Below are positions 1,267 through 8,978 of a DNA stretch of 41,364 nt, piece by piece. The DNA is from a virus (lineage: Duplodnaviria > Heunggongvirae > Uroviricota > Caudoviricetes): the IMG/VR virus record IMGVR_UViG_2909257012_000006, positions 1 to 41,364 of that record, one strand, 5' to 3'. How positions within the stretch are numbered: the first letter of the stretch is position 1; each line of letters opens with the position of its first letter. The notes below the pieces were generated by a model. That model saw only the letters and a list, made by a program, of their open reading frames with translations. It was not told where the DNA came from and did not search any database. Both the position numbers and the translations under genes were made by a program.

Positions 1267-3450
1267 CTATCTAATCCTGAACATTACAATTGGAGCAGAG
1301 CCAGAAGATAAAGGGCCTGACCAATGGTATCTAATTCTGAAAGAAGACTCACTTGGAGTTCCGATAATTTCTATTGGACTTAAAGTTGCACCTTCTGCAG
1401 AACCAGCAGGTTGTCTAAACCCCAACACAGCAATCTGGTTTGGTGTTGGGGCATACAGAAAATTATGCTCAATATCAACCTCGTTAGATTCGCTACCTGT
1501 TGGGTTTGGCATATTCCACTCAATATAATCGTCAGTTGATTTACCATTTATTGAGTTTCCAACTGTTGCCATAATCGTCCACGTACACGTCCTGTTAAGG
1601 GCTGCCATTCTATCACCTAAAAACCTATTATAACCATTTGCGCCTGAAGTGATTAATCTTATATTCTCTGATGCACATGTGCCAATGCTGTTAAATCCAG
1701 TGCAATCAGAAGAAAGCCCCTTCGCAGTTATATCTACGCTGTTCGCAAAACAAATTGTTGTTGAATTTACTGCATCGCGAATAAGAGCAGAACCCGAAAA
1801 CAAATTATCACACGAACCTCTTATATTATTACCACCGCCGGATAAGTAACATAAATTTCCTTTTATCCTCTTGGATGTAAAAGTAACATTGTTATTGTCA
1901 CCAGTAACAGAAAGAAGCGAGGCTTTAATAGGGGCATTGTCACTCTGTAACTGACCAATTTGGTTTATTGTAACTACATTGTTGTTGCCTGATATAGCTA
2001 TCTGATACCCATCATCATCAATTGAAGGTGAATATCTTTGTGCTTTTATATTGATGTTAAGTGTCCAGATTGTACCGTTATCCAGAAGCATGTCGCGGAG
2101 AGGAGAAATTGAATCGCCAGTGTAGTTATCTGGCATTCTTCCACACGCCCTGGCTTCTGCGATGGCAACAACACCATGTGCCCCGTTGGTAAACCAGTAA
2201 CCACCTAAACTATTATCAACACACACGTGCCTCGCATTGAATCGGTTAACACCCAGCGTCTTAAATCCATAGCCATAATACACAGCATATACATGGATGT
2301 AATTTATATCGACATGTCCTGTATAAGGAGACTGATTATCAAGAACAATTCCATGACATGGTTCTCCGGGATAAAGAAGGCTTTGTTGGCTTGTTGCTGT
2401 TAATCTTGCGCTGTAAGGAGGAAGTCCACACGGGCCAAAAACAATATAATCTAGGTTAATATCACCTGGCCCCCTGAACACAACCCCCTCTCTCCCTGAA
2501 ATTCTTCCCGTTATCCTCACTTCAGAGGCGTGTTCCTGATTATCATGAAATGATCCATACCCCTCTGAATAGAGAGCATGTTCTGCAACATTATTAATCT
2601 CAACGTCAATGTGGTACATGCTGCCGAATATTTTAATGGCAGTTCCATAGTCATTGTTAACAGTGTCGCAAGTTCTCCATGAGTTTGTATCTCTTTGCAA
2701 GTCAAGATAATTACCATCAATGGTCATATCTTTTATGCTAAATCCATATGGCGCATCAGACAGATTTTCCACAACGCCAAAGCCATGTGTTTTAAATACA
2801 TCTGTATTACTACCTTTTTTAACATACAGAAATGTTGCTCTCTTTCCAGAGCCTTTATGATGAACGCCTGTATAAAGAATGATAGGAGAATCTATTAAAT
2901 AAACACCTGGAGGGTAAAATATTTCCCCGCCACCATTATTAAAAGCAGCTAATGCTGCGGCATTAATGGCATCAGAATCTGATGTCAATCCATCTGCTTT
3001 AGCTCCATAGTATTGAGGTGTTTTCCTGATTGCATCGTAAACCGTTGAAGCGCCGAAACCGATATATTTACTACCATCTGTACCGCCAATAAGTAATTTA
3101 AACTGATCCGGGTCATACTTCAGCACATTCGGAAAATAGAACTGCTGTGTACCATACGCATCATAAACAGCCATAGAATGGCCTTGCACGGTTACGAATT
3201 TGGCAATCTGTCCGTTATATACCGGATATCCAGCAGCGTTAATGATTATTGGTTGCGAAACAGGAACGTGAGAACCGTCTTCATTCTCCACATAAACCTG
3301 AATCTGGTTTTCAGGGTTTACCGGGTCAGTGTCAATTTTACCGATATAAATTTTGCCATTGGCATTTGCTTTAAACGAGCGAGCTAAAGTAAATAACTGA
3401 CTTGGTTGTGAAACAACAACGTTGTATAATTGTTCTGGCATAATAAACAT
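1267..3450 (-). CDS. Tailspike protein; P22-like N-terminal head-binding domain with a different receptor-binding domain
   Basis: 727 aa; N-terminus [37 protein letters not shown]...[13 protein letters not shown] matches recalled P22 gp9 head-binding domain; remainder diverges. Confidence 0.85.
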
Positions 3451-3463
3451 TCCGGAGAAAATA

Positions 3464-3964
3464 ATGAGTAAAAGACGTCACGAGGTAGTAACTCGGGAGC
3501 GCCTTATGGAGGTTCTCGATTACAATAAAGAAACAGGAATTTTCACTTGGAAAAAGAAATTAAGCGCCAGAGGTGCTGTTGGGAAAGTTGCTGGCACAAT
3601 TTCTTATGGATATAACGCAATTAATATTGATGGCGTAAGATATTTTGCACATAGACTTGCCTGGCTGTATGTATATGGCGAATGGCCCAAACAAGAGATT
3701 GACCACATTGATAGAAATAGAAGAAATAACGCAATCTCAAACCTTAGGGATGTCAGCAGAGTCGTAAACGCATTAAATGTCGGACCTCGAAATAGCAATG
3801 CTGGAATCAAGGGGGTAACTTTCTGTCAAGCCAGAAATCAATGGCAAGCTCAGATAAATGTCTCAGGTAAAAACATAACCCTTGGGAGATTCAACACCAT
3901 TGATGAAGCGGCTATAGCTTATAAGGCAGCAAACATGGTTGCTGACCATCTGTTGAGTAGGTAA
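3464..3964 (+). CDS. HNH endonuclease with AP2-like DNA-binding domain (homing-endonuclease-like), paralog of 25106..25597
   Basis: Motifs [13 protein letters not shown]...[17 protein letters not shown] and GIKGVTF; GGAG RBS 6 nt upstream of ATG at 3464. Confidence 0.75.
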
Positions 3965-4106
3965 TGTCTGTCATTTAATTTGCTCCAGATACAAGGAATC
4001 ACCGCAGCATGGCTACGGTTGGAATTTGTTACATACCTAAACGGTACGATTGTTGATTTGTACAGTGGGTTTTACGATGCCATTCCACCCATTTGGTGAG
4101 GCATTG

Positions 4107-4364
4107 ATGATGTACAGCAAATACGATGAGGCGCAGTTCCACTTGAGGCTTACACACGAGTTGCACGCTAAGATTAAGCAGCGTGCAAAAATGAATAACA
4201 GGTCTATCAATTCCGAAATTGTGGCTACGATGGAAGAATCACTCTCCAAACCATCACCTGTAAGCGGGTATCGTGATGAAGAAGAGAGGCTGGCCTCATT
4301 AATCTCGGAACGAGTAAAAGAAGTTGCGGCTGATATCCTTAGAAAAGAAAAAACCCGCGATTAA
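4107..4364 (+). CDS. mnt: Mnt-like ribbon-helix-helix repressor (Arc/MetJ family)
   Basis: FHLRLTHELHAKIKQRAKMNNRSINSEIV...SLSKPSPVSGYRDEEERLA resembles recalled P22 Mnt; start chosen at ATG with GGTGAGG RBS. Confidence 0.65.
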   Translation: MMYSKYDEAQFHLRLTHELHAKIKQRAKMNNRSINSEIVATMEESLSKPSPVSGYRDEEERLASLISERVKEVAADILRKEKTRD

Positions 4365-4375
4365 GCGGGTTTAGT
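4353..4375. terminator. Bidirectional rho-independent terminator (ACCCGC-GATTAA-GCGGGT) between convergent genes
   Basis: Hairpin with T-run on - strand side (TTTTTCTTTTCT); mnt-like stop codon lies in the loop. Confidence 0.55.
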
Positions 4376-4378
4376 TGG

Positions 4379-4600
4379 TTAGTTATCAAAAAGTCCGTAC
4401 GTTTCTTCTTCTTCAGGTGTAAGGGGAAGAATCTCTACTCTATCTATAGATACCTTTTCAATGTACCCATGAGGTCTACTTAAAATTAAAGCTCTCTCAT
4501 GCCACAGAACTCCAAGAATGTGATACCTTCCAGCATCGCCTTTTACCCTGGCTCTTCCTTTGATTCTTGGAGGCATAATGCCATATTTTTTCTTTGCCAT
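4379..4600 (-). CDS. Hypothetical protein, last gene of ant operon
   Basis: 73-aa ORF abutting upstream gene; no recognisable motif. Confidence 0.45.
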   Translation of the reverse strand: MAKKKYGIMPPRIKGRARVKGDAGRYHILGVLWHERALILSRPHGYIEKVSIDRVEILPLTPEEEETYGLFDN

Positions 4601-5328
4601 TATGCAACATTACTCCCATGAATCAGGTGTTGTAGTGCTTTAACACCTTCCGCATTGTAGCGGAATGCTTCCACCTGTTTGCTGGAATGCGCAGATTTAT
4701 CCAGGAAGAACTTCCCGTACTGCTCAGTTTTGAGGTTGTTTGCGTTAGCAATGCGACCAATCTTGTTGGCCGTTACTCCAAGCTGCTCTGCAACCTCCCC
4801 TGCTGAGTAGTAATGCTCTTCTATTGCCGGAAGAGGTATTGCATTAAAACCAACGAGCGGGTTGATTATACTTGCTGCCGCTGTCTGCTTTGCCTCAGGC
4901 GCAAGATTTGGCATCAGATCGAACAGATTGGTAACAGCTTCAACCGTCATTTTCAGTGTTCGCGCCTGGCGATACTCAACAAGTCCACTCGACGATTTAC
5001 CGCTTTTAATGTGCGCTTCTTGCATACTTTCAAGTTGGTCTACAAGTGAGCGGCGAACAGCTTTAGATTCACGAGCAGCCACTCGAAGGGCTTGCTTAAT
5101 TGACATAACAACTTTTTCAGAAGTTGTCTTGTTTGATTTTTGAACTACGAAAATTTCGTAGTGCTCACCTTCAAGTTCATCCTTAATGCGTGCAATAAAG
5201 TCGTTATTGCGAACTTCTTTTTCCCCGCACTGTCTACGAGCATGATTGACCATCTCTAACAGGTACTGGCTATCAATGGTTTTATCCGTGACAACGGATC
5301 CGATGTTTGCTACATTCTTAAAAGTCAT
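4600..5328 (-). CDS. Second antirepressor-like protein with C-terminal KilA-C/ANT domain
   Basis: C-terminal YSAGEVAEQLGVTANKIGRIANANNLKTEQYGKFF motif; ATG at 5328 has AGGA RBS (the track ORF starts at a TTG at 5415). Confidence 0.6.
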   Translation of the reverse strand: MTFKNVANIGSVVTDKTIDSQYLLEMVNHARRQCGEKEVRNNDFIARIKDELEGEHYEIFVVQKSNKTTSEKVVMSIKQALRVAARESKAVRRSLVDQLESMQEAHIKSGKSSSGLVEYRQARTLKMTVEAVTNLFDLMPNLAPEAKQTAAASIINPLVGFNAIPLPAIEEHYYSAGEVAEQLGVTANKIGRIANANNLKTEQYGKFFLDKSAHSSKQVEAFRYNAEGVKALQHLIHGSNVA

Positions 5329-5415
5329 TAGGCATTCCTTATGTGGTAGTAAGGGTGTGACATAGGCCGCCAGCAGCACACTGGCGGTTTTCTTTTGCGC
5401 CGTCCTGGGCACCAA

Positions 5416-6054
5416 TCAATGAATCCATTCCTCGCCGCGAAGTTTTGCCAGCATTGGCTGAGCGTTCTTTACGACAAAATTGTTGGGATCAAGATTCTTC
5501 ATTTCACGAAGAAGCGATTTCTTGGTTTCTTCTGACATGTAGCGAGTCTCATATGCAATATCGTAAATCCTTCCTGAAAGCTCAGAACCAATTTGCTTCA
5601 TTCCTGGGTAGATGTGTTTGCACATTTGTTGACTCTTCTCCATCCACAATTGTAAGTAGCAGAGATTAACCAGTTCTTCGTCAGTAAACTGTTTTGCAAT
5701 CGGTGAGCATTCTGCCTGCCGATCCAAAATATCCAGCACCCAGCGGCGGAACTCTTTGGCCTTGGGCGTAGAAGCAAACATCGCCACCAAGTGAGCGCCT
5801 CGGAGCGAGTAAACTCTGACCGATTTGTTACGTAAGCTATTGTTTATTCCGTTGACCTTCATATTGAGGGTCAATGACATTGAGTCGGAAAATTCGTCAG
5901 CATTACGGGCATAAATTTGGCTGATGGCATCAGTTTTTTTATAGCCGAGAGCCTTAGCTAGTTCGGCGGAGGTGAACCAGATAGACCCGCCCTCTGTTAC
6001 AGGGTTAAAAGTGAATCCTTGGAAGTTATAATCTGATTTTGCTACAATATTCAT
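5416..6054 (-). CDS. ant: Antirepressor with Bro-N domain
   Basis: Bro-N-like N-terminus FQGFTFNPVTEGGSIWFTSAELAKALGY; ATG at 6054 with AAGGA RBS; position downstream of arc. Confidence 0.65.
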   Translation of the reverse strand: MNIVAKSDYNFQGFTFNPVTEGGSIWFTSAELAKALGYKKTDAISQIYARNADEFSDSMSLTLNMKVNGINNSLRNKSVRVYSLRGAHLVAMFASTPKAKEFRRWVLDILDRQAECSPIAKQFTDEELVNLCYLQLWMEKSQQMCKHIYPGMKQIGSELSGRIYDIAYETRYMSEETKKSLLREMKNLDPNNFVVKNAQPMLAKLRGEEWIH

Positions 6055-6127
6055 GTTAGTTTCCTTGGGTACGGTTACTGACATAGAGGCCCGGTTTGTG
6101 TTCGCGCACTTCCGGGCTTCACTATTT

Positions 6128-6304
6128 TTACTGGGCATTAGCTCTTTCCTCTCTCAGGCTTTTAGCCAGTCGCTGCACAATCGCAGAGTTGATAGAAATT
6201 CCATCCATTTCAGCTACGCGTCTGATCTCCTCCTTCATTCGCGCTGGCAAACGAAGCTGGAAACTCTGACTTTTACGACCACTGTAAAGAACATCGCTCA
6301 TCAT
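6128..6304 (-). CDS. arc: Arc-like ribbon-helix-helix repressor
   Basis: SQSFQLRLPARMKEEIRRVAEMDGISINSAIVQRL resembles recalled P22 Arc; GGAG RBS before ATG at 6304. Confidence 0.65.
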   Translation of the reverse strand: MMSDVLYSGRKSQSFQLRLPARMKEEIRRVAEMDGISINSAIVQRLAKSLREERANAQ

Positions 6305-6320
6305 CAATATCTCCGTCATA

Positions 6321-6341
6321 ATGACATCACCATGATGTCAT
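6321..6341. promoter_or_regulatory. 21-bp palindrome ATGACATCA-CCA-TGATGTCAT in arc/mnt divergent control region; candidate operator
   Basis: Perfect 9-bp half sites seen directly; located between divergent RHH repressor genes. Confidence 0.4.
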
Positions 6342-6421
6342 GACACCATTATGATGCCATTGCTCATAATGTCAATATGATGCTACTGTGTTTTTTATTG
6401 CTCATATGCCTTGCGAATAAG

Positions 6422-6676
6422 AAAATGTCAGAAAAAGACGAATCAAATTTCATAGAAAGATTTACGGTTAGAATGCCTGACGGCATGCGTAGTGCTATTG
6501 CGGAAAGGGCTAAACGAAACGGTCGATCTATGAACTCAGAGATAGTTCAAATTCTTGAGGATGCGTTATCATCTGACGTCTCATCAGTAGACAAATCATT
6601 AGATCTTAAACAAATAAAATCTTTACTTGATAAAATTTCCAACGAGTTACTGGATAGAATCCCAAAAGACACATAA
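6422..6676 (+). CDS. Second RHH (Arc/Mnt-family) repressor, divergent from arc
   Basis: FTVRMPDGMRSAIAERAKRNGRSMNSEIVQIL RHH signature; start uncertain (weak RBS). Confidence 0.55.
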   Translation, partial: KMSEKDESNFIERFTVRMPDGMRSAIAERAKRNGRSMNSEIVQILEDALSSDVSSVDKSLDLKQIKSLLDKISNELLDRIPKDT

Positions 6677-6722
6677 CAAAACATTATCATCCGGTGTTCT
6701 GCTCAAAACTAAGGAGGTTGGT

Positions 6723-7112
6723 GTGAAGCAATTTCTTACTGCTATGTTCTTATTCATATCTTTTGGGGCTACAGCAGAGTGCTGGGTCGTTGGAGATATG
6801 CGCGGAATAAGCTATTCAGAACGAAATAATTTCCATCCGGAAGAAGATGGTTTTAGTGGAACATTCATCATTAAGACAAACGGTGAAGATGCCAGCATCA
6901 CATATTCTGGGACAGATGCGGGCGGCATGGCTTACAAAGCATTGTCTAAAAACTCCATCATAGGAATCGGCGCGAATGGCGAAACTCAACGCGTTATCGA
7001 CTCATGGGTAATACATCCTACTGGAACAGTTTTAATGTCAAAAACCATTTCTGGTTATGGGAATATGGATTCAACCAAAGCTTTTGTTGGAAAAGTAAAA
7101 AGAAAATGTTAA
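6723..7112 (+). CDS. Small secreted/periplasmic protein with N-terminal signal peptide (moron-like), co-transcribed with RHH gene
   Basis: AAGGAGG RBS 5 nt before GTG; N-terminus KQFLTAMFLFISFGATA then ECW (AxA cleavage motif). Confidence 0.55.
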   Translation: MKQFLTAMFLFISFGATAECWVVGDMRGISYSERNNFHPEEDGFSGTFIIKTNGEDASITYSGTDAGGMAYKALSKNSIIGIGANGETQRVIDSWVIHPTGTVLMSKTISGYGNMDSTKAFVGKVKRKC

Positions 7113-7136: not shown

Positions 7137-8978
7137 TTACTGCTGTGTTGCCTCAGTAGCAAGCAGCGGCCTGATGGCATTTGCAGCGTTACTCAACGCT
7201 CTTTCATAGGCTGGTGTTCCTGCTTTGGTGTTTGCCAGACGTAAGAGCGCATTCCTTGCTGCTTTGGACTCATACAAGCGCATCATTGCACCGAAACCAG
7301 CCTCAAGCCCCATTGATACGCCAAGAGTCGCAGTTGCGCCAATCGTCCTTATCCTGTTGGCTTGCGATTGCCCCGTCTGAGTTACTACATTTGCGGTGTC
7401 TGACCTTGCTGTTTGCTGCAGAACTTCATGAAGAGCATCAAGTTCTTTCATGTGCTTTCCAGAAAAAATAGTGTTGTAAATTTCACCGCCTGACTGAGAT
7501 TTCAGCTTATTAACTTCAGTGATGAACTTGGCTGGAGAGTCACCGGCCTTTTCCGCTATTTTGCTGACGTAAGCTGCACGCATAGCATCTTTCCCTTTAT
7601 CATCCAGTGCGCTCCAGATTCGTTTCACGTCAGATGGTTTTCTGCTTAATACAACGGTATTTATAAGTTCAGGACTGGCTTCACTGCTTGCCTTGTTGAG
7701 TTTGTTAGCAATGTTTTTATTAAGCACCTTATTATAAACGTTTGCATAATCGGAATTTGCTTTAAGGTATTTTGCTGCGTCTGATGCACCGAGGTTTTTA
7801 GCAACTGCGTTACGAAGGTCTTTTGACATTGCATTCTCTACCATATTGGTAGCTGCTTTTGCCTGGTTGGGGAAGACCATAGCATCTCCCTGAACATTAG
7901 ATCTAAATGCTGTTCTGTGCTGACGCAAGAGATCAAACGTAACATCCAAATCAGTTGCAGGGTTTGCTAATTCTTCACGTAGGTTACGCAAGGATGTAAG
8001 CAGGCTTTGATTGGCAGACGTCCCAAGCCGTTCCTGTCTTGCGATCGCTGTATTCAGAGCATTCATGGTATTTGTGGTATCAACTGCGGCATTACCCATT
8101 TTATTGGTGACGTCATTGATAACAGCGCCAGCGGCATCCTTCCGCCCCCTTAACGTGGTGGTCAGAGATTTCACCACATCATCAGGGTTGTAATCACCAA
8201 AACGGTCAAAATAATTGCTTACCAGCTTACTACGCGTTGCATATTGCTCCGCACGCTTTGAACCTGTCCCTAGCAAAGCCCCCTCAGCATCCTGAGTAAG
8301 GCCACGAGTGAAAGCATTTTTCGGCGGGATAACATCAGATGTCATTGGTGTCACGCCCATCGATTCTGATGTGGCAATTTTCTTCGCCACTTCTGGCGCA
8401 ATATCACCTTTTATGGCCGTTATTCCACGCCCTATTCCCTTTGCTGCGGCGGAAAGAACACCCTGAGCGGCAAGGTTAACTCCGGCATTTTTAGCTGCAT
8501 TTTGTGCGAAATCGCCTTTCTGATTTGCGGCCTCTGCCAGTGATCCAATAGCCATGCTTCCTGCCGTTCCAACTCCTGGAACTAAATACCCACCAATTGT
8601 TTCACCGGCTTGTGCGTAGGGGTCTGTCGGTCGATCGACAGGGCGATAAACATCATCCAAAACCTTGGGGCCACCAAGCCCCTGGCTGATTGCATTAATC
8701 AGACTTGCGCCACCCTGCAATACGTCAAATGGTATGTTTACCAGACCACGACCAGCCTGTTCTGCAATTTGCCCTGCACTTTGACCACCAGTGAGCCAAT
8801 CGCCAGCTTGTTGCATCAATGATGGTTCTTCCCGTGTTGGTGCATTATTGGCCTGATTAACTGTTTGTTGCTGAACAGCCTGACCAGCAAAATACTCATC
8901 AATGGCGGTGCCAATATCTTCGGTGCTCGTACCATCAGGAAAGGTAAATGTCTTACCGTTTGCAGTTACTTTCATCAT
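7137..8978 (-). CDS. Ejection/internal virion protein, P22 gp16-like
   Basis: 613 aa; size and synteny match P22 gp16; Ala/Gly-rich. Confidence 0.7.

Follow-up and report, generated by a model that had tools for sequence, protein, structure and literature searches.

Genes of the locus and their genomic setting

The region described here lies within a window of 41,364 nucleotides (the whole stretch of DNA that was analysed) and holds six ORFs, all intact, which are given below together with their terminator.

mntB, 4107/4110-4364, + strand: full-length P22 Mnt homologue (Pfam Arc, 4e-15)
Terminator hairpin, 4351-4372: intrinsic, strong for the ant operon on the - strand; shared with mntB on the + strand, where the U tract is weak
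orf73, 4379-4600, - strand: small conserved 73-aa protein, start overlapping the ant2 stop (TAATG)
ant2, 4600-5328, - strand: predicted two-domain antirepressor-class protein of 242 aa, with homology to the P1 Ant core
ant1, 5416-6054, - strand: Bro-N + P22_AR_C antirepressor-type protein of 212 aa (Pfam)
arc, 6128-6304/6301, - strand: Arc-family RHH repressor of 57-58 aa, first gene of the ant operon (Pfam Arc, 1e-11)
mntA, 6425-6676, + strand: divergent RHH repressor of 83 aa in the Mnt position (Pfam Arc, 1.4e-17)

These genes occupy the immI slot, i.e., the interval between the homologue of gene 16 (DNA transfer protein; 7137-8978, 75% identical to P22 gp16) and the tailspike gene, whose head-binding domain lies at 1267-3450. 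The closest phages are Lederbergvirus. Villafane et al. 2008 (PMC2629481) call the slot between gene 16 and tailspike the hypervariable "ant moron". The layout found here represents one version of a phage region that is well known and evolves quickly; it is common in public genomes, and the ant module is 94-100% conserved among the prophages listed. A relic of an ancestral tailspike start was seen at 3974-3960.

The sequence-only reading of this DNA had proposed an expanded immI-type region with a - strand operon in the order arc-ant1-ant2-orf73-terminator. Both proposals were borne out, and every ORF matched the coordinates given there or differed by at most one codon. The Arc family of Pfam was found in all three RHH proteins (arc, mntA and mntB), in agreement with the proposed RHH nature of arc and of the divergent gene beside the control region. 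The arc product is 42% identical to P22 Arc, and its likeliest start is the ATG at 6304/6301, which is preceded by GGAG, rather than 6319; RefSeq annotates the 57-aa form. The mntA product resembles P22 Mnt in the RHH domain only (57% over 37 aa) and has a C-terminal tail unrelated to that of P22 Mnt. The starts of arc and mntA are about 120 bp apart. HTH- or LexA-type repressors take the place of mntA in JEP4, EC0026B and A41, and mntA is truncated in KSC207.

Predicted promoters, operators and antisense RNAs

The regulatory elements of the ant operon are as follows.

sar2, 5288-5399, + strand: candidate second sar-type antisense RNA; promoter GTGACA 5288-5293, 17-bp spacer, TGC-TACATT 5311-5316
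sar1, 6019-6127, + strand: antisense RNA candidate, P22 sar homologue; promoter TTGGAA 6019-6024, 18-bp spacer, TGC-TACAAT 6043-6048
O1 and O2, 6321-6360: candidate operators, adjacent 21-bp copies, from the palindrome scan and a window-wide count
Pant, 6347-6375, - strand: predicted promoter, -35 TTGACA 6375-6370, 16-bp spacer, -10 CATAAT 6353-6348
PmntA, 6354-6381, + strand: weak divergent candidate promoter, ATGCCA 6354-6359, 16-bp spacer, TATGAT 6376-6381

The promoter scan matched Pant at 11 of 12 consensus positions. The site at 6321-6341, O1, had been described as a perfect 21-bp palindrome; its two arms of 9 bp, ATGACATCA and TGATGTCAT, are indeed perfect, but the 3-bp centre CCA is non-symmetric, so that the site is a 9+3+9 structure. 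O2 (6340-6360) is a second copy with two mismatches. Because O1 and O2 are the sole matches in 41 kb against 0.02 expected, their occurrence is not due to chance. Together they give four TGAYRYCA subsites (starts at 6322, 6333, 6341 and 6352) with centre-to-centre steps of 11, 8 and 11 bp, and they look like predicted sites for one protein. O1 overlies the start-site region of Pant and O2 overlies its -10, and O1 ends 17 nt before the arc ATG, which is the Omnt-to-arc distance in P22; as in P22, the operator follows immediately on the -10. An extra dyad, CATTATG-N11-CATAATG (6347-6371), lies within Pant at the position of P22 Oarc and is by itself barely above chance. The control regions of JEP4 and SPN3UB, compared for operator transfer, have operators unrelated to O1 and O2, as would be expected of different specificities.

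The predicted sar1 RNA begins at G6055, one base before the ant1 ATG, and extends to about 6127; its terminator hairpin (about 6086-6120) and U run lie in the arc-ant1 spacer. The element can be aligned to sar, Psar and the terminator as annotated in P22, its predicted fold has the same two hairpins (z=-4.8 vs -5.3 in P22), and by sequence sar1 is homologous to P22 sar. It was present in all of the 11 aligned ant leaders, which come from several genera. RNAalifold of these 11 sequences gave a weak consensus with part of the terminator stem only, because MAFFT misaligned the variable interior of the hairpin. Rfam searches, at gathering thresholds and at E<=10, returned no sar or other credible family; a SymR-like match at 6052-6123 was at chance level and was rejected.

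The second candidate, sar2, came from the promoter and terminator scan. Its promoter sits within the first codons of ant2, the predicted RNA (about 5322-5399) faces the ant2 start codon and SD, and a terminator hairpin at 5364-5390 is followed by UUUUCUUUU. The GTGACA-17-TGnTAnnnT promoter, the anti-SD loop and the hairpin with U run also occur in homologues from Dryocola, Intestinirhabdus and Proteus faecis, so these elements are kept in four genera with a partly different stem sequence in the hairpin. Their conservation makes sar2 a candidate antisense RNA. The two-hairpin fold is less distinctive than that of sar1 (z=-2.0), and part of the promoter conservation could be driven by the protein because the promoter lies in conserved codons (VVT, NVAN).

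The terminator has an 8-bp G+C stem and lies where P22 has its terminator between ant and gene 9. It had been called strong and bidirectional. For the ant operon it is strong, the stem being followed on the - strand by UUUUUUCUUUU (z=-4.6); it is only weakly bidirectional because the U tract of the + strand, UUUAGUU, is poor (z=-3.3). The mntB stop codon falls in the loop.

The two ant genes, orf73 and the distal mnt gene

The domain search confirmed ant1 as a Bro-N antirepressor-type gene. Bro-N (PF02498) was found at residues 20-110 with 1.4e-10 and 42 bits against a gathering cut-off of 25.6, followed by P22_AR_C (Pfam, 2e-13), and the protein matches phrog_245, "anti-repressor Ant", at 7e-52. 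Homology to P22 ant is only partial, since Bro-N stands where P22 Ant has P22_AR_N. The start is ATG 6054, not the ATG of the long ORF at 6138. The Ant of the siphovirus SPN3UB is 98.6% identical to ant1 in amino acids and about 95% in nucleotides, with 3 amino acid changes for about 35 nucleotide changes.

The N-domain of ant2 (about residues 14-106) aligns at 64% identity with residues 112-206 of a P1-type Ant1 (E=2e-37), which itself is 93% identical to P1 Ant1. These residues alone align with P1 Ant1/Ant2, and the ANT part is absent. A KilA-C/ANT domain had been assigned to this protein and has to be withdrawn, as ANT/KilAC (PF03374) gave no Pfam match at E<=10 and hhalign of an 80-sequence ant2C profile against the ANT profile gave a probability of 1.1%. 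The idea of two different antirepressor architectures survives with Bro-N/P22_AR_C in ant1 and a P1-Ant-like core in ant2; it is the named ANT domain that was wrong. The C-domain of ant2 (about residues 110-240) belongs to an unnamed family that is predicted to end in a MerR-like winged HTH. In its homologues this domain is fused behind Bro-N (26), Rha (22), KilA-N (12), ORF6N (11), AntA (7) or P22_AR_N (4), and ant2N is followed by ANT or ant2C, never by both. The AF2 model is of moderate confidence (pLDDT 71); Foldseek matched the C-terminal winged helix alone and gave no significant full-length match, and Pfam, NCBIfam and PDB sequence searches returned nothing usable. The family comprises 924 representative clusters in the protein library and has no Pfam model. 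We infer from these sequence relationships that ant2 encodes an antirepressor-class protein, though likeness to the P1 Ant1 core is no proof of a shared activity.

Both ant1 and ant2 are conserved, and purifying selection acts on them. In ant2 the C-part has pN/pS of 0.03-0.09, the first 20 codons, which hold the sar2 promoter, are almost invariant in DNA, and the next 58 codons are saturated. Diversifying selection by point mutation was considered for the N-domain and ruled out: synonymous sites are saturated in the core (pS 0.7-0.9) and not in the flanks, which therefore indicates cassette replacement. The swapped core (residues 21-78) is likely the specificity determinant.

The 73-aa ORF is real, as proposed, and matches phrog_4977 over its full length (5.5e-54), with just 8 clusters in 5.8 billion proteins. 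Its predicted fold is an SH3/Tudor-like beta-barrel with a C-terminal helix (AF2 pLDDT 69). The core (residues 20-73) is invariant, compensated frameshifts make the first 19 aa variable and leave the ORF open, and pN/pS is about 0.09 from few changes. The gene directly follows ant2 in 39 of the 80 viral contigs with an ant2 homologue that made up our modularity survey, and also in an unrelated myovirus-type prophage of E. coli A41.

The tandem of two ant genes is not unusual, being the usual setting of the ant2 family: in 73 of those 80 contigs the gene immediately upstream of ant2 is another ant gene (62 of the ant1 type, 11 of the P22-Ant type), and 44 have a convergent Mnt-like gene downstream. 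Two contigs (L089 and L023) have the order ant1>ant2>orf73> <mnt arc> P22-ant> tailspike, and a third (L052) has mnt<>arc>P22-ant>ant2> <mntB. The phage phiKp_30 has ant2 without ant1, P22 retains ant2 merely as a 30-codon relic, and the design of the ant module recurs in other genera. No relevant paper on P22-like phages with tandem or second antirepressors came up in full-text literature searches.

Three features lie upstream of mntB.

Conserved region, 4028-4106, + strand: aligns among the window, JEP4, VSe13 and Sf101
Candidate promoter, 4050-4078, + strand: TTGTTG 4050-4055, 17-bp spacer, TACGAT 4073-4078; read by eye, absent from the promoter-scan output
SD, 4096-4102, + strand: GGTGAGG

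A second Mnt-like gene had been noted beyond the terminator; it is present, but it is not an added regulator of this operon. The mntB product is a closer homologue of P22 Mnt than that of mntA, matching it at 47% identity across 73 of the 83 positions of P22 Mnt, a stretch that takes in SKPSPVxGYR and the C-terminal helix, and it has the RHH N-domain and the C-terminal oligomerisation region of the P22 Mnt type. Its upstream side holds boundary sequence, an HNH gene and the tailspike gene only, with no cognate arc-ant operon. In L089 and L023 a P22-type mnt at this position has its own arc-ant operon, and in VSe13 and Sf101 an mntB-type gene stands alone beside the tailspike gene, without any ant gene. 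Thus mntB is what is left of a second mnt<>arc>ant module, distal to this one and adjoining the tailspike gene: an orphan repressor that lost its arc-ant genes by deletion. The upstream region is conserved even though the Sf101 Mnt is only 63% identical; the palindrome scan and upstream alignment, searched for an MntB operator, gave only a weak, conserved dyad with 4-bp arms, TACC-N5-GGTA (4034-4046). Since mntB is under strong purifying selection (pN/pS 0.04 at pS 0.60, vs VSe13), it is evidently being kept, most likely for repression in trans of the matching ant operon in incoming related phages, for self-regulation, or for both.

Interpretation and comparison with known immunity systems

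In our interpretation an E. coli prophage of the P22-like (Lederbergvirus) kind carries its immI-type ant moron here, a mosaic of exchangeable cassettes that would work like P22 immI with one extra layer, and we give this reading, including the mechanism below, a probability of roughly 0.6. Pant, as one strong sigma-70 promoter, would drive arc-ant1-ant2-orf73 on the - strand to the hairpin at 4351-4372, and mntA would be transcribed divergently. By analogy with P22, MntA would be the maintenance repressor that holds Pant shut in the lysogen, Arc would shut Pant down again after infection, and both would act through O1, O2 and the in-promoter dyad over the -10 and start site. A cis-antisense RNA for each ant gene, started from a promoter within that gene's first codons and terminated in the upstream spacer, would dampen the translation of that gene. 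Firing of Pant would then yield two different antirepressor-class proteins, which are predicted to bind and inactivate prophage repressors of the CI/C2 type, with different or broader specificity between them. The product of orf73 would be a translationally coupled small beta-barrel protein that travels with ant2, and mntB, as a survivor of the distal module, would stand outside this operon.

The assignment of ant2 is the point most easily read otherwise. It might be a sequence-specific DNA-binding regulator of the KilA/Rha/Bro class that is co-expressed with ant1 and, for example, switches on lytic or host-takeover functions upon derepression of Pant; weak HTH_31 and excisionase hints at residues 172-207 would fit, as would the lack of ANT, P22_AR or any other curated antirepressor domain. 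We consider this improbable, at about one chance in five, as the N-domain is 64% identical to the core common to an experimentally established P1 antirepressor, known antirepressors draw on the same pool of DNA-binding-like modules, and ant2 is almost always found within an mnt/arc-controlled ant operon. Partnership is less probable still: ant1, or a P22-type Ant, and ant2 would be subunits of one antirepressor activity, with orf73 as a possible third partner or modulator. The upstream ant gene in 73 of 80 contigs speaks for it, as do the P22_AR_C shared by the ant1-type and P22-Ant-type neighbours and the translational coupling of ant2 and orf73, and P1 Ant1 and Ant2 were reportedly seen by Riedel et al. 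in 1993 to co-purify as a complex. Yet P22 Ant works alone beside its ant2 relic, phiKp_30 has ant2 and no ant1, and SPN3UB pairs an almost identical ant1 with a different second gene; moreover, because each ant gene has its own antisense RNA candidate, separately tuned products are suggested.

A role for mntB in the control of this operon, e.g., as a second maintenance repressor of Pant or of an internal promoter ahead of ant2, is very improbable. The gene does lie directly past the operon terminator and is co-inherited with ant2 and orf73 in JEP4, phiKp_30 and 43 of the 80 viral contigs. Against this, the ant1-ant2 spacer, scanned for promoters and palindromes as a test of ant2 as a separate MntB-controlled unit, has no sigma-70-like promoter or operator, O1-type sites are confined to 6321-6360, mntB is unchanged in JEP4 and EC0026B where the arc/mnt control cassette and operators were replaced, its type occurs ant-free in Sf101 and VSe13, and the gene at its position in L089 appears from its sequence to control its own arc-ant operon. 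Least credible of all is that the region is decaying mosaic debris, recombination leftovers without function. The ant moron is known for degraded genes (Villafane 2008, PMC2629481), and relics do exist (an ant2 fragment in P22, a truncated mntA in KSC207 and the tailspike start at 3974-3960), but the six ORFs are intact, mntB, ant2 and orf73 have pN/pS well below 1, the orf73 frame is kept through compensated frameshifts, and the module is both highly conserved among the prophages listed and recurrent in other genera.

A wider extension of the two-antirepressor reading is speculative and in our view probably too bold. In many enterobacterial prophages immI might be a two-antirepressor device with one sar-type RNA per ant gene, in which the swappable ant2 core (residues 21-78, at least three alleles) sets the heterologous repressors attacked, and orphan Mnt genes such as mntB might provide a trans "anti-antirepressor" immunity that silences the ant operons of superinfecting relatives and so prevents induction from outside. 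Antirepressors shape the cross-talk of prophages in E. coli and Salmonella because one phage can induce or override another. If ant1 and ant2 attack different repressors, this would explain how a single prophage wakes several neighbours. If the orphan Mnt acts in trans, it would explain the persistence of lone mnt genes in many P22-like phages, a question that papers on phage L and epsilon34 leave unanswered. The ant2 family would merit a curated family, and with sar2 the classic sar antisense control would have its second example; the basic immI picture is left unchanged by any of these findings or readings.

The closest model is P22 immI (mnt, arc, ant, sar), reportedly described in Sauer et al. 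1983 and Susskind 1980, which was compared as annotated in NC_002371. Both have the same slot, divergent mnt and arc, a terminator before the tailspike gene, a strong Pant with (here candidate) operators over the -10 and start site at equal spacing from arc, a sar homologue that faces the ribosome-binding site of ant, and P22_AR_C in the ant product. In contrast to P22, ant1 here has Bro-N replacing P22_AR_N and is followed by ant2, with its sar-like RNA candidate, and orf73; the C-terminal tail of MntA is another one, the operators are unrelated in sequence with the main one duplicated, and a second, orphan Mnt gene lies past the terminator. The available text on ant moron types describes the same hypervariable cassette slot (Villafane et al. 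2008, PMC2629481), in which mnt can stand alone, ant can be degraded and unrelated inserts occur (PMC2629481; orphan mnt of phage L/ST64T, PMC8022706), and those parts of both papers describe no ant1-ant2-orf73 layout, L089-type double immI or second antisense RNA.

The immI of P1/P7 shares with our locus the homology of the ant2 N-domain to the P1 Ant1 core. In P1 the antirepressor Ant1/Ant2 is restrained by the c4 antisense RNA, so an antisense RNA, a candidate one here, would restrain an antirepressor in both. P1 Ant, however, ends in KilAC/ANT and ant2 in an unrelated domain, the first 110 residues of P1 Ant1 have no counterpart in ant2, and homologues of icd and c4 are absent here, where control would be by RHH repressors. 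SPN3UB and prophages of Proteus, Dryocola, Intestinirhabdus, Providencia and Xenorhabdus have the same arrangement of mnt <> arc > Bro-N/P22_AR_C ant > second two-domain ant-class gene. These modules differ from ours in that orf73 and mntB occur in E. coli/Salmonella elements only, and in that the N-domain of the second gene varies, being ant2N, Rha-like, Bro-N-like, KilA-N-like or ORF6N-like.

Position and gene content of the ant region

A P22-like (Lederbergvirus) prophage of E. coli makes up the window; its ant region sits between a gene-16-type gene and the tailspike gene, and immI of P22 occupies the equivalent gene 16-tailspike interval. Villafane et al. 2008 (PMC2629481) introduced the name 'ant moron' for this hypervariable region and described ten types in sixteen genomes, lone mnt genes and degraded ant genes among them. 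The closest sequenced phage is JEP4, and 100% identical DNA was found in E. coli Ecol_276, MNCRE44 and 875.

Features of the ant region and its borders (positions in the window)
7137-8978, - strand: gene-16-type DNA transfer gene, 75% identical to P22 gp16
6425-6676, divergent from arc: mntA, Pfam Arc 1.4e-17
6128-6304, - strand: arc, Pfam Arc 1e-11
5416-6054, - strand: ant1, Bro-N + P22_AR_C
4600-5328, - strand: ant2, 242 aa
4379-4600, - strand: orf73, a 73-aa ORF, end-to-end match to phrog_4977
4107-4364, beyond the terminator: mntB, Pfam Arc 4e-15
1267-3450, - strand: tailspike gene

The observations of the sequence-only reading were largely correct, and its interpretation was correct in part. 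The Pfam Arc domain was recovered in the arc RHH gene, the divergent RHH gene (mntA) and the second Mnt-like gene (mntB), the proposed Bro-N antirepressor is ant1 with Bro-N and P22_AR_C by Pfam, and the 73-aa ORF matched phrog_4977 over its whole length. The hairpin at 4351-4372, which had been taken for a strong bidirectional terminator, is a good intrinsic terminator on the - strand but weaker on the + strand. The interest of the region lies in an uncurated ant2 family, a probable second antisense RNA and a conserved orphan Mnt.

Two further genes were observed at the borders. Downstream of mntA, orf129 (6723-7112, +) encodes a signal-peptide protein that matches phrog_2651 and no Pfam family, and it has its own SD (AAGGAGG) and a GTG start codon. 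It fills the slot of orf59a and sieA in P22, a SieA-like or orf59a-like gene replaces it in relatives, and it is a candidate moron or exclusion gene expressed by the prophage. The ancestral tailspike gene holds, within its 5' end, an HNH-AP2 endonuclease gene (3464-3964, +; HNH_3 2e-16, phrog_99 7e-63), and the old tailspike RBS and first five codons persist at 3974-3960 on the - strand (ATGACAGACATTACC, MTDIT, as in P22 gp9). The tailspike ORF now begins at 3450 with the new N-terminus MFIMPEQLY, followed by NVVVS. In prophages without the HNH gene the match to the window begins at 3961-3967, and phage Kapi1 shares the insertion (98.9% identity).

The ant2 family and orf73

The KilAC/ANT domain that had been assigned to the second ant-like protein is absent from ant2, because no Pfam family matched it even when the threshold was relaxed to E<=10. 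The protein matches phrog_1726 'anti-repressor' (1e-100), and a full HMMER scan showed 924 representative clusters in its family and two separable domains. The N-domain (ant2N, residues 14-106) shares 64% identity with residues 112-206 of a 347-aa P1 Ant1-type protein, which is itself 93% identical to P1 Ant1, and the C-domain (ant2C) is preceded in its relatives by Bro-N, Rha, KilA-N, ORF6N, AntA or P22_AR_N. Among 150 representatives, ant2N is followed by ANT (8) or ant2C (10), ant2C and ANT never occur in one protein, and a relationship between ant2C and the ANT profile was undetectable (hhalign probability 1%). Thus ant2 is a member of the antirepressor/Bro/KilA domain-shuffling pool, and its N-domain core is common to P1 Ant1, a proven antirepressor; the antirepressor activity of ant2 itself is putative. 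Residues 21-78 occur as at least three cassettes swapped by recombination (alleles of the window, JEP4 and KSC207) on a constant C-terminal part, and this stretch fits a putative specificity-determining core.

Traces of ant2 were also observed elsewhere. In P22, an ant2 N-domain relic of ~30 codons (NELEGETYKKIVGRKANKITSEKVVLSQK; L002 5060-5155), 59% identical to ant2 residues 47-78, sits in the interval from the ant terminator to gene 9 with a copy of the boundary repeat AAAATTCACCGTAGCC on either side, which suggests that an ancestor of P22 had ant > ant2, as does locus L052. Inside ant2 there is a 19-bp palindrome, ACTACGAAAtTTTCGTAGT (window 5134-5174, codons EGEHYEIFVVQK), and the 38-41 bp around it are 95-100% identical to an unannotated spot in many of the chromosomes listed in the search of 5426 complete E. 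coli genomes, for example within another prophage-like element of PA45B (L018 2501-2538). The same codons of the P22 relic keep a palindrome with different letters (GACCTACAAaaaaaTTGTAGGTC), and the site is possibly a recombination hot spot.

Among 5.8 billion proteins orf73 forms 8 clusters, and the gene is confined to elements of E. coli and Salmonella. The core (residues 20-73) does not vary; codons 1-19 differ by compensated frameshifts, which leave the ORF open from the ant2 stop. The structural model shows a small barrel of SH3/Tudor type and a helix at the C-terminus, and neither this model nor the fold matches gave a functional lead.

Predicted operators and antisense RNAs

The sole strong promoter in the control region is Pant, the operon promoter (- strand), which is composed of TTGACA at 6375-6370, a 16-bp spacer and CATAAT at 6353-6348. 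The palindrome at 6321-6341 (O1), claimed as a perfect one of 21 bp, is real, but it is built as 9+3+9 bp and the symmetry is incomplete. A second copy (O2, 6340-6360) has two mismatches, and apart from these two no match occurs in 41 kb, with 0.02 expected. O2 covers the Pant -10 and O1 the start region, four TGAYRYCA subsites within them are stepped by 11, 8 and 11 bp from centre to centre, and the 17 nt from the end of O1 to the arc ATG equal the Omnt-arc spacing of P22. A dyad within Pant, CATTATG-N11-CATAATG, is only weakly above chance and has the position of Oarc in P22. The DNA-reading strand residues differ (S-F-Q-L-R in Arc, R-F-T-V-R in MntA, Q-F-H-L-R in MntB), therefore the three proteins should, as judged from these residues, read different sites. 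Replacement of the arc/mnt cassette upstream of ant1 or P22-ant was observed in JEP4 (L001 5164-6078) and in two other loci (L020 3526-4440; L019 5038-6121), which have a different small RHH-like gene and an HTH (C2-like) or LexA-family repressor. Despite the replacement, sar1 and the ant genes are unchanged.

The antisense RNA sar of P22, its promoter and its terminator have aligned counterparts in the arc-ant1 spacer and the first codons of ant1. The predicted sar1 runs from 6055 to ~6127 on the + strand, with its first base just before the ant1 ATG, and P22 sar begins at the equivalent base and has the two-hairpin fold predicted for sar1 (z-scores -4.8 for sar1 and -5.3 for P22 sar). Each of the 11 aligned ant leaders, which come from several genera, has the element, and the predicted sar1 RNA is regarded as established by homology. 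SymR is another cis-antisense RNA, and an Rfam SymR match at 6052-6123 (+; 18.4 bits, E=3.4) coincides with the predicted sar1; this weak, chance-level match is no evidence that sar1 belongs to that family.

A parallel arrangement was found at ant2. The promoter of the candidate sar2, GTGACA-17-TGC-TACATT (5288-5316, +), lies within the first ant2 codons and is followed by an anti-SD loop and, in the ant1-ant2 spacer, by a hairpin with UUUUCUUUU (5364-5399); the predicted RNA begins near 5322. The spacing of the promoter, its extended -10 and the terminator are kept before the ant2 homologues of Dryocola, Intestinirhabdus and Proteus faecis, the terminator stem of P. faecis being partly changed in sequence. 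In DNA sequence, codons 1-20 of ant2 are nearly invariant, and the next 58 are change-saturated. We consider sar2 a good candidate for an antisense RNA.

mntB and the spread of the layout

Compared with P22 Mnt, mntB is 47% identical over the full length and mntA is similar over the RHH domain only, so that mntB is, at the sequence level, the closer relative. In VSe13 (96% identical) and Sf101 (63%) a mntB-type gene is found on its own next to the tailspike gene; Sf101 lacks ant genes altogether, and the 80 bp upstream of mntB are conserved in both. In two IMG/VR contigs, L089 and L023 (~2786-6500), the order ant1 > ant2 > orf73 > < mnt is followed by arc > P22-ant > tailspike, i.e., two complete immI modules and three ant genes in one ant moron. 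Given this order, the window is best read as an L089-type double module from which the distal arc-ant genes would have been deleted. Strong purifying selection acts on mntB (pN/pS 0.04 at pS 0.60). It is a working gene and not debris; it may regulate itself, repress the cognate ant operons of incoming phages in trans, or do both. The Sf101 Mnt (L017 2998-3261) was observed to be a chimera of an RHH half near-identical to MntB and a P22-Mnt-like C-terminal half (AERMAEQQSDMVKKIVFDTLKELYKK), therefore even the repressor gene itself is mosaic between its DNA-binding and oligomerisation parts.

The layout is common and represents a mosaic variant of P22 immI that is recognisable and widespread. 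Of the 5426 complete E. coli genomes, 24 contain at least 80% of 4100-6680, and JEP4 and EC0026B, among others, retain mntB-orf73-ant2-ant1 with a different arc/repressor cassette. Among the best 80 ant2 loci of IMG/VR, another ant gene lies directly upstream of ant2 in 73 (62 of ant1 type and 11 of P22-Ant type), a convergent Mnt-like gene downstream in 44, and orf73 is found in 39. The order mnt <> arc > Bro-N ant > second ant-class gene was further observed in Proteus, Dryocola, Intestinirhabdus, Providencia and Xenorhabdus, and the siphovirus SPN3UB has the same design. In E. coli A41, ant2-orf73 likewise comes after a P22-type Ant, within a myovirus-type prophage and under a LexA-family repressor.
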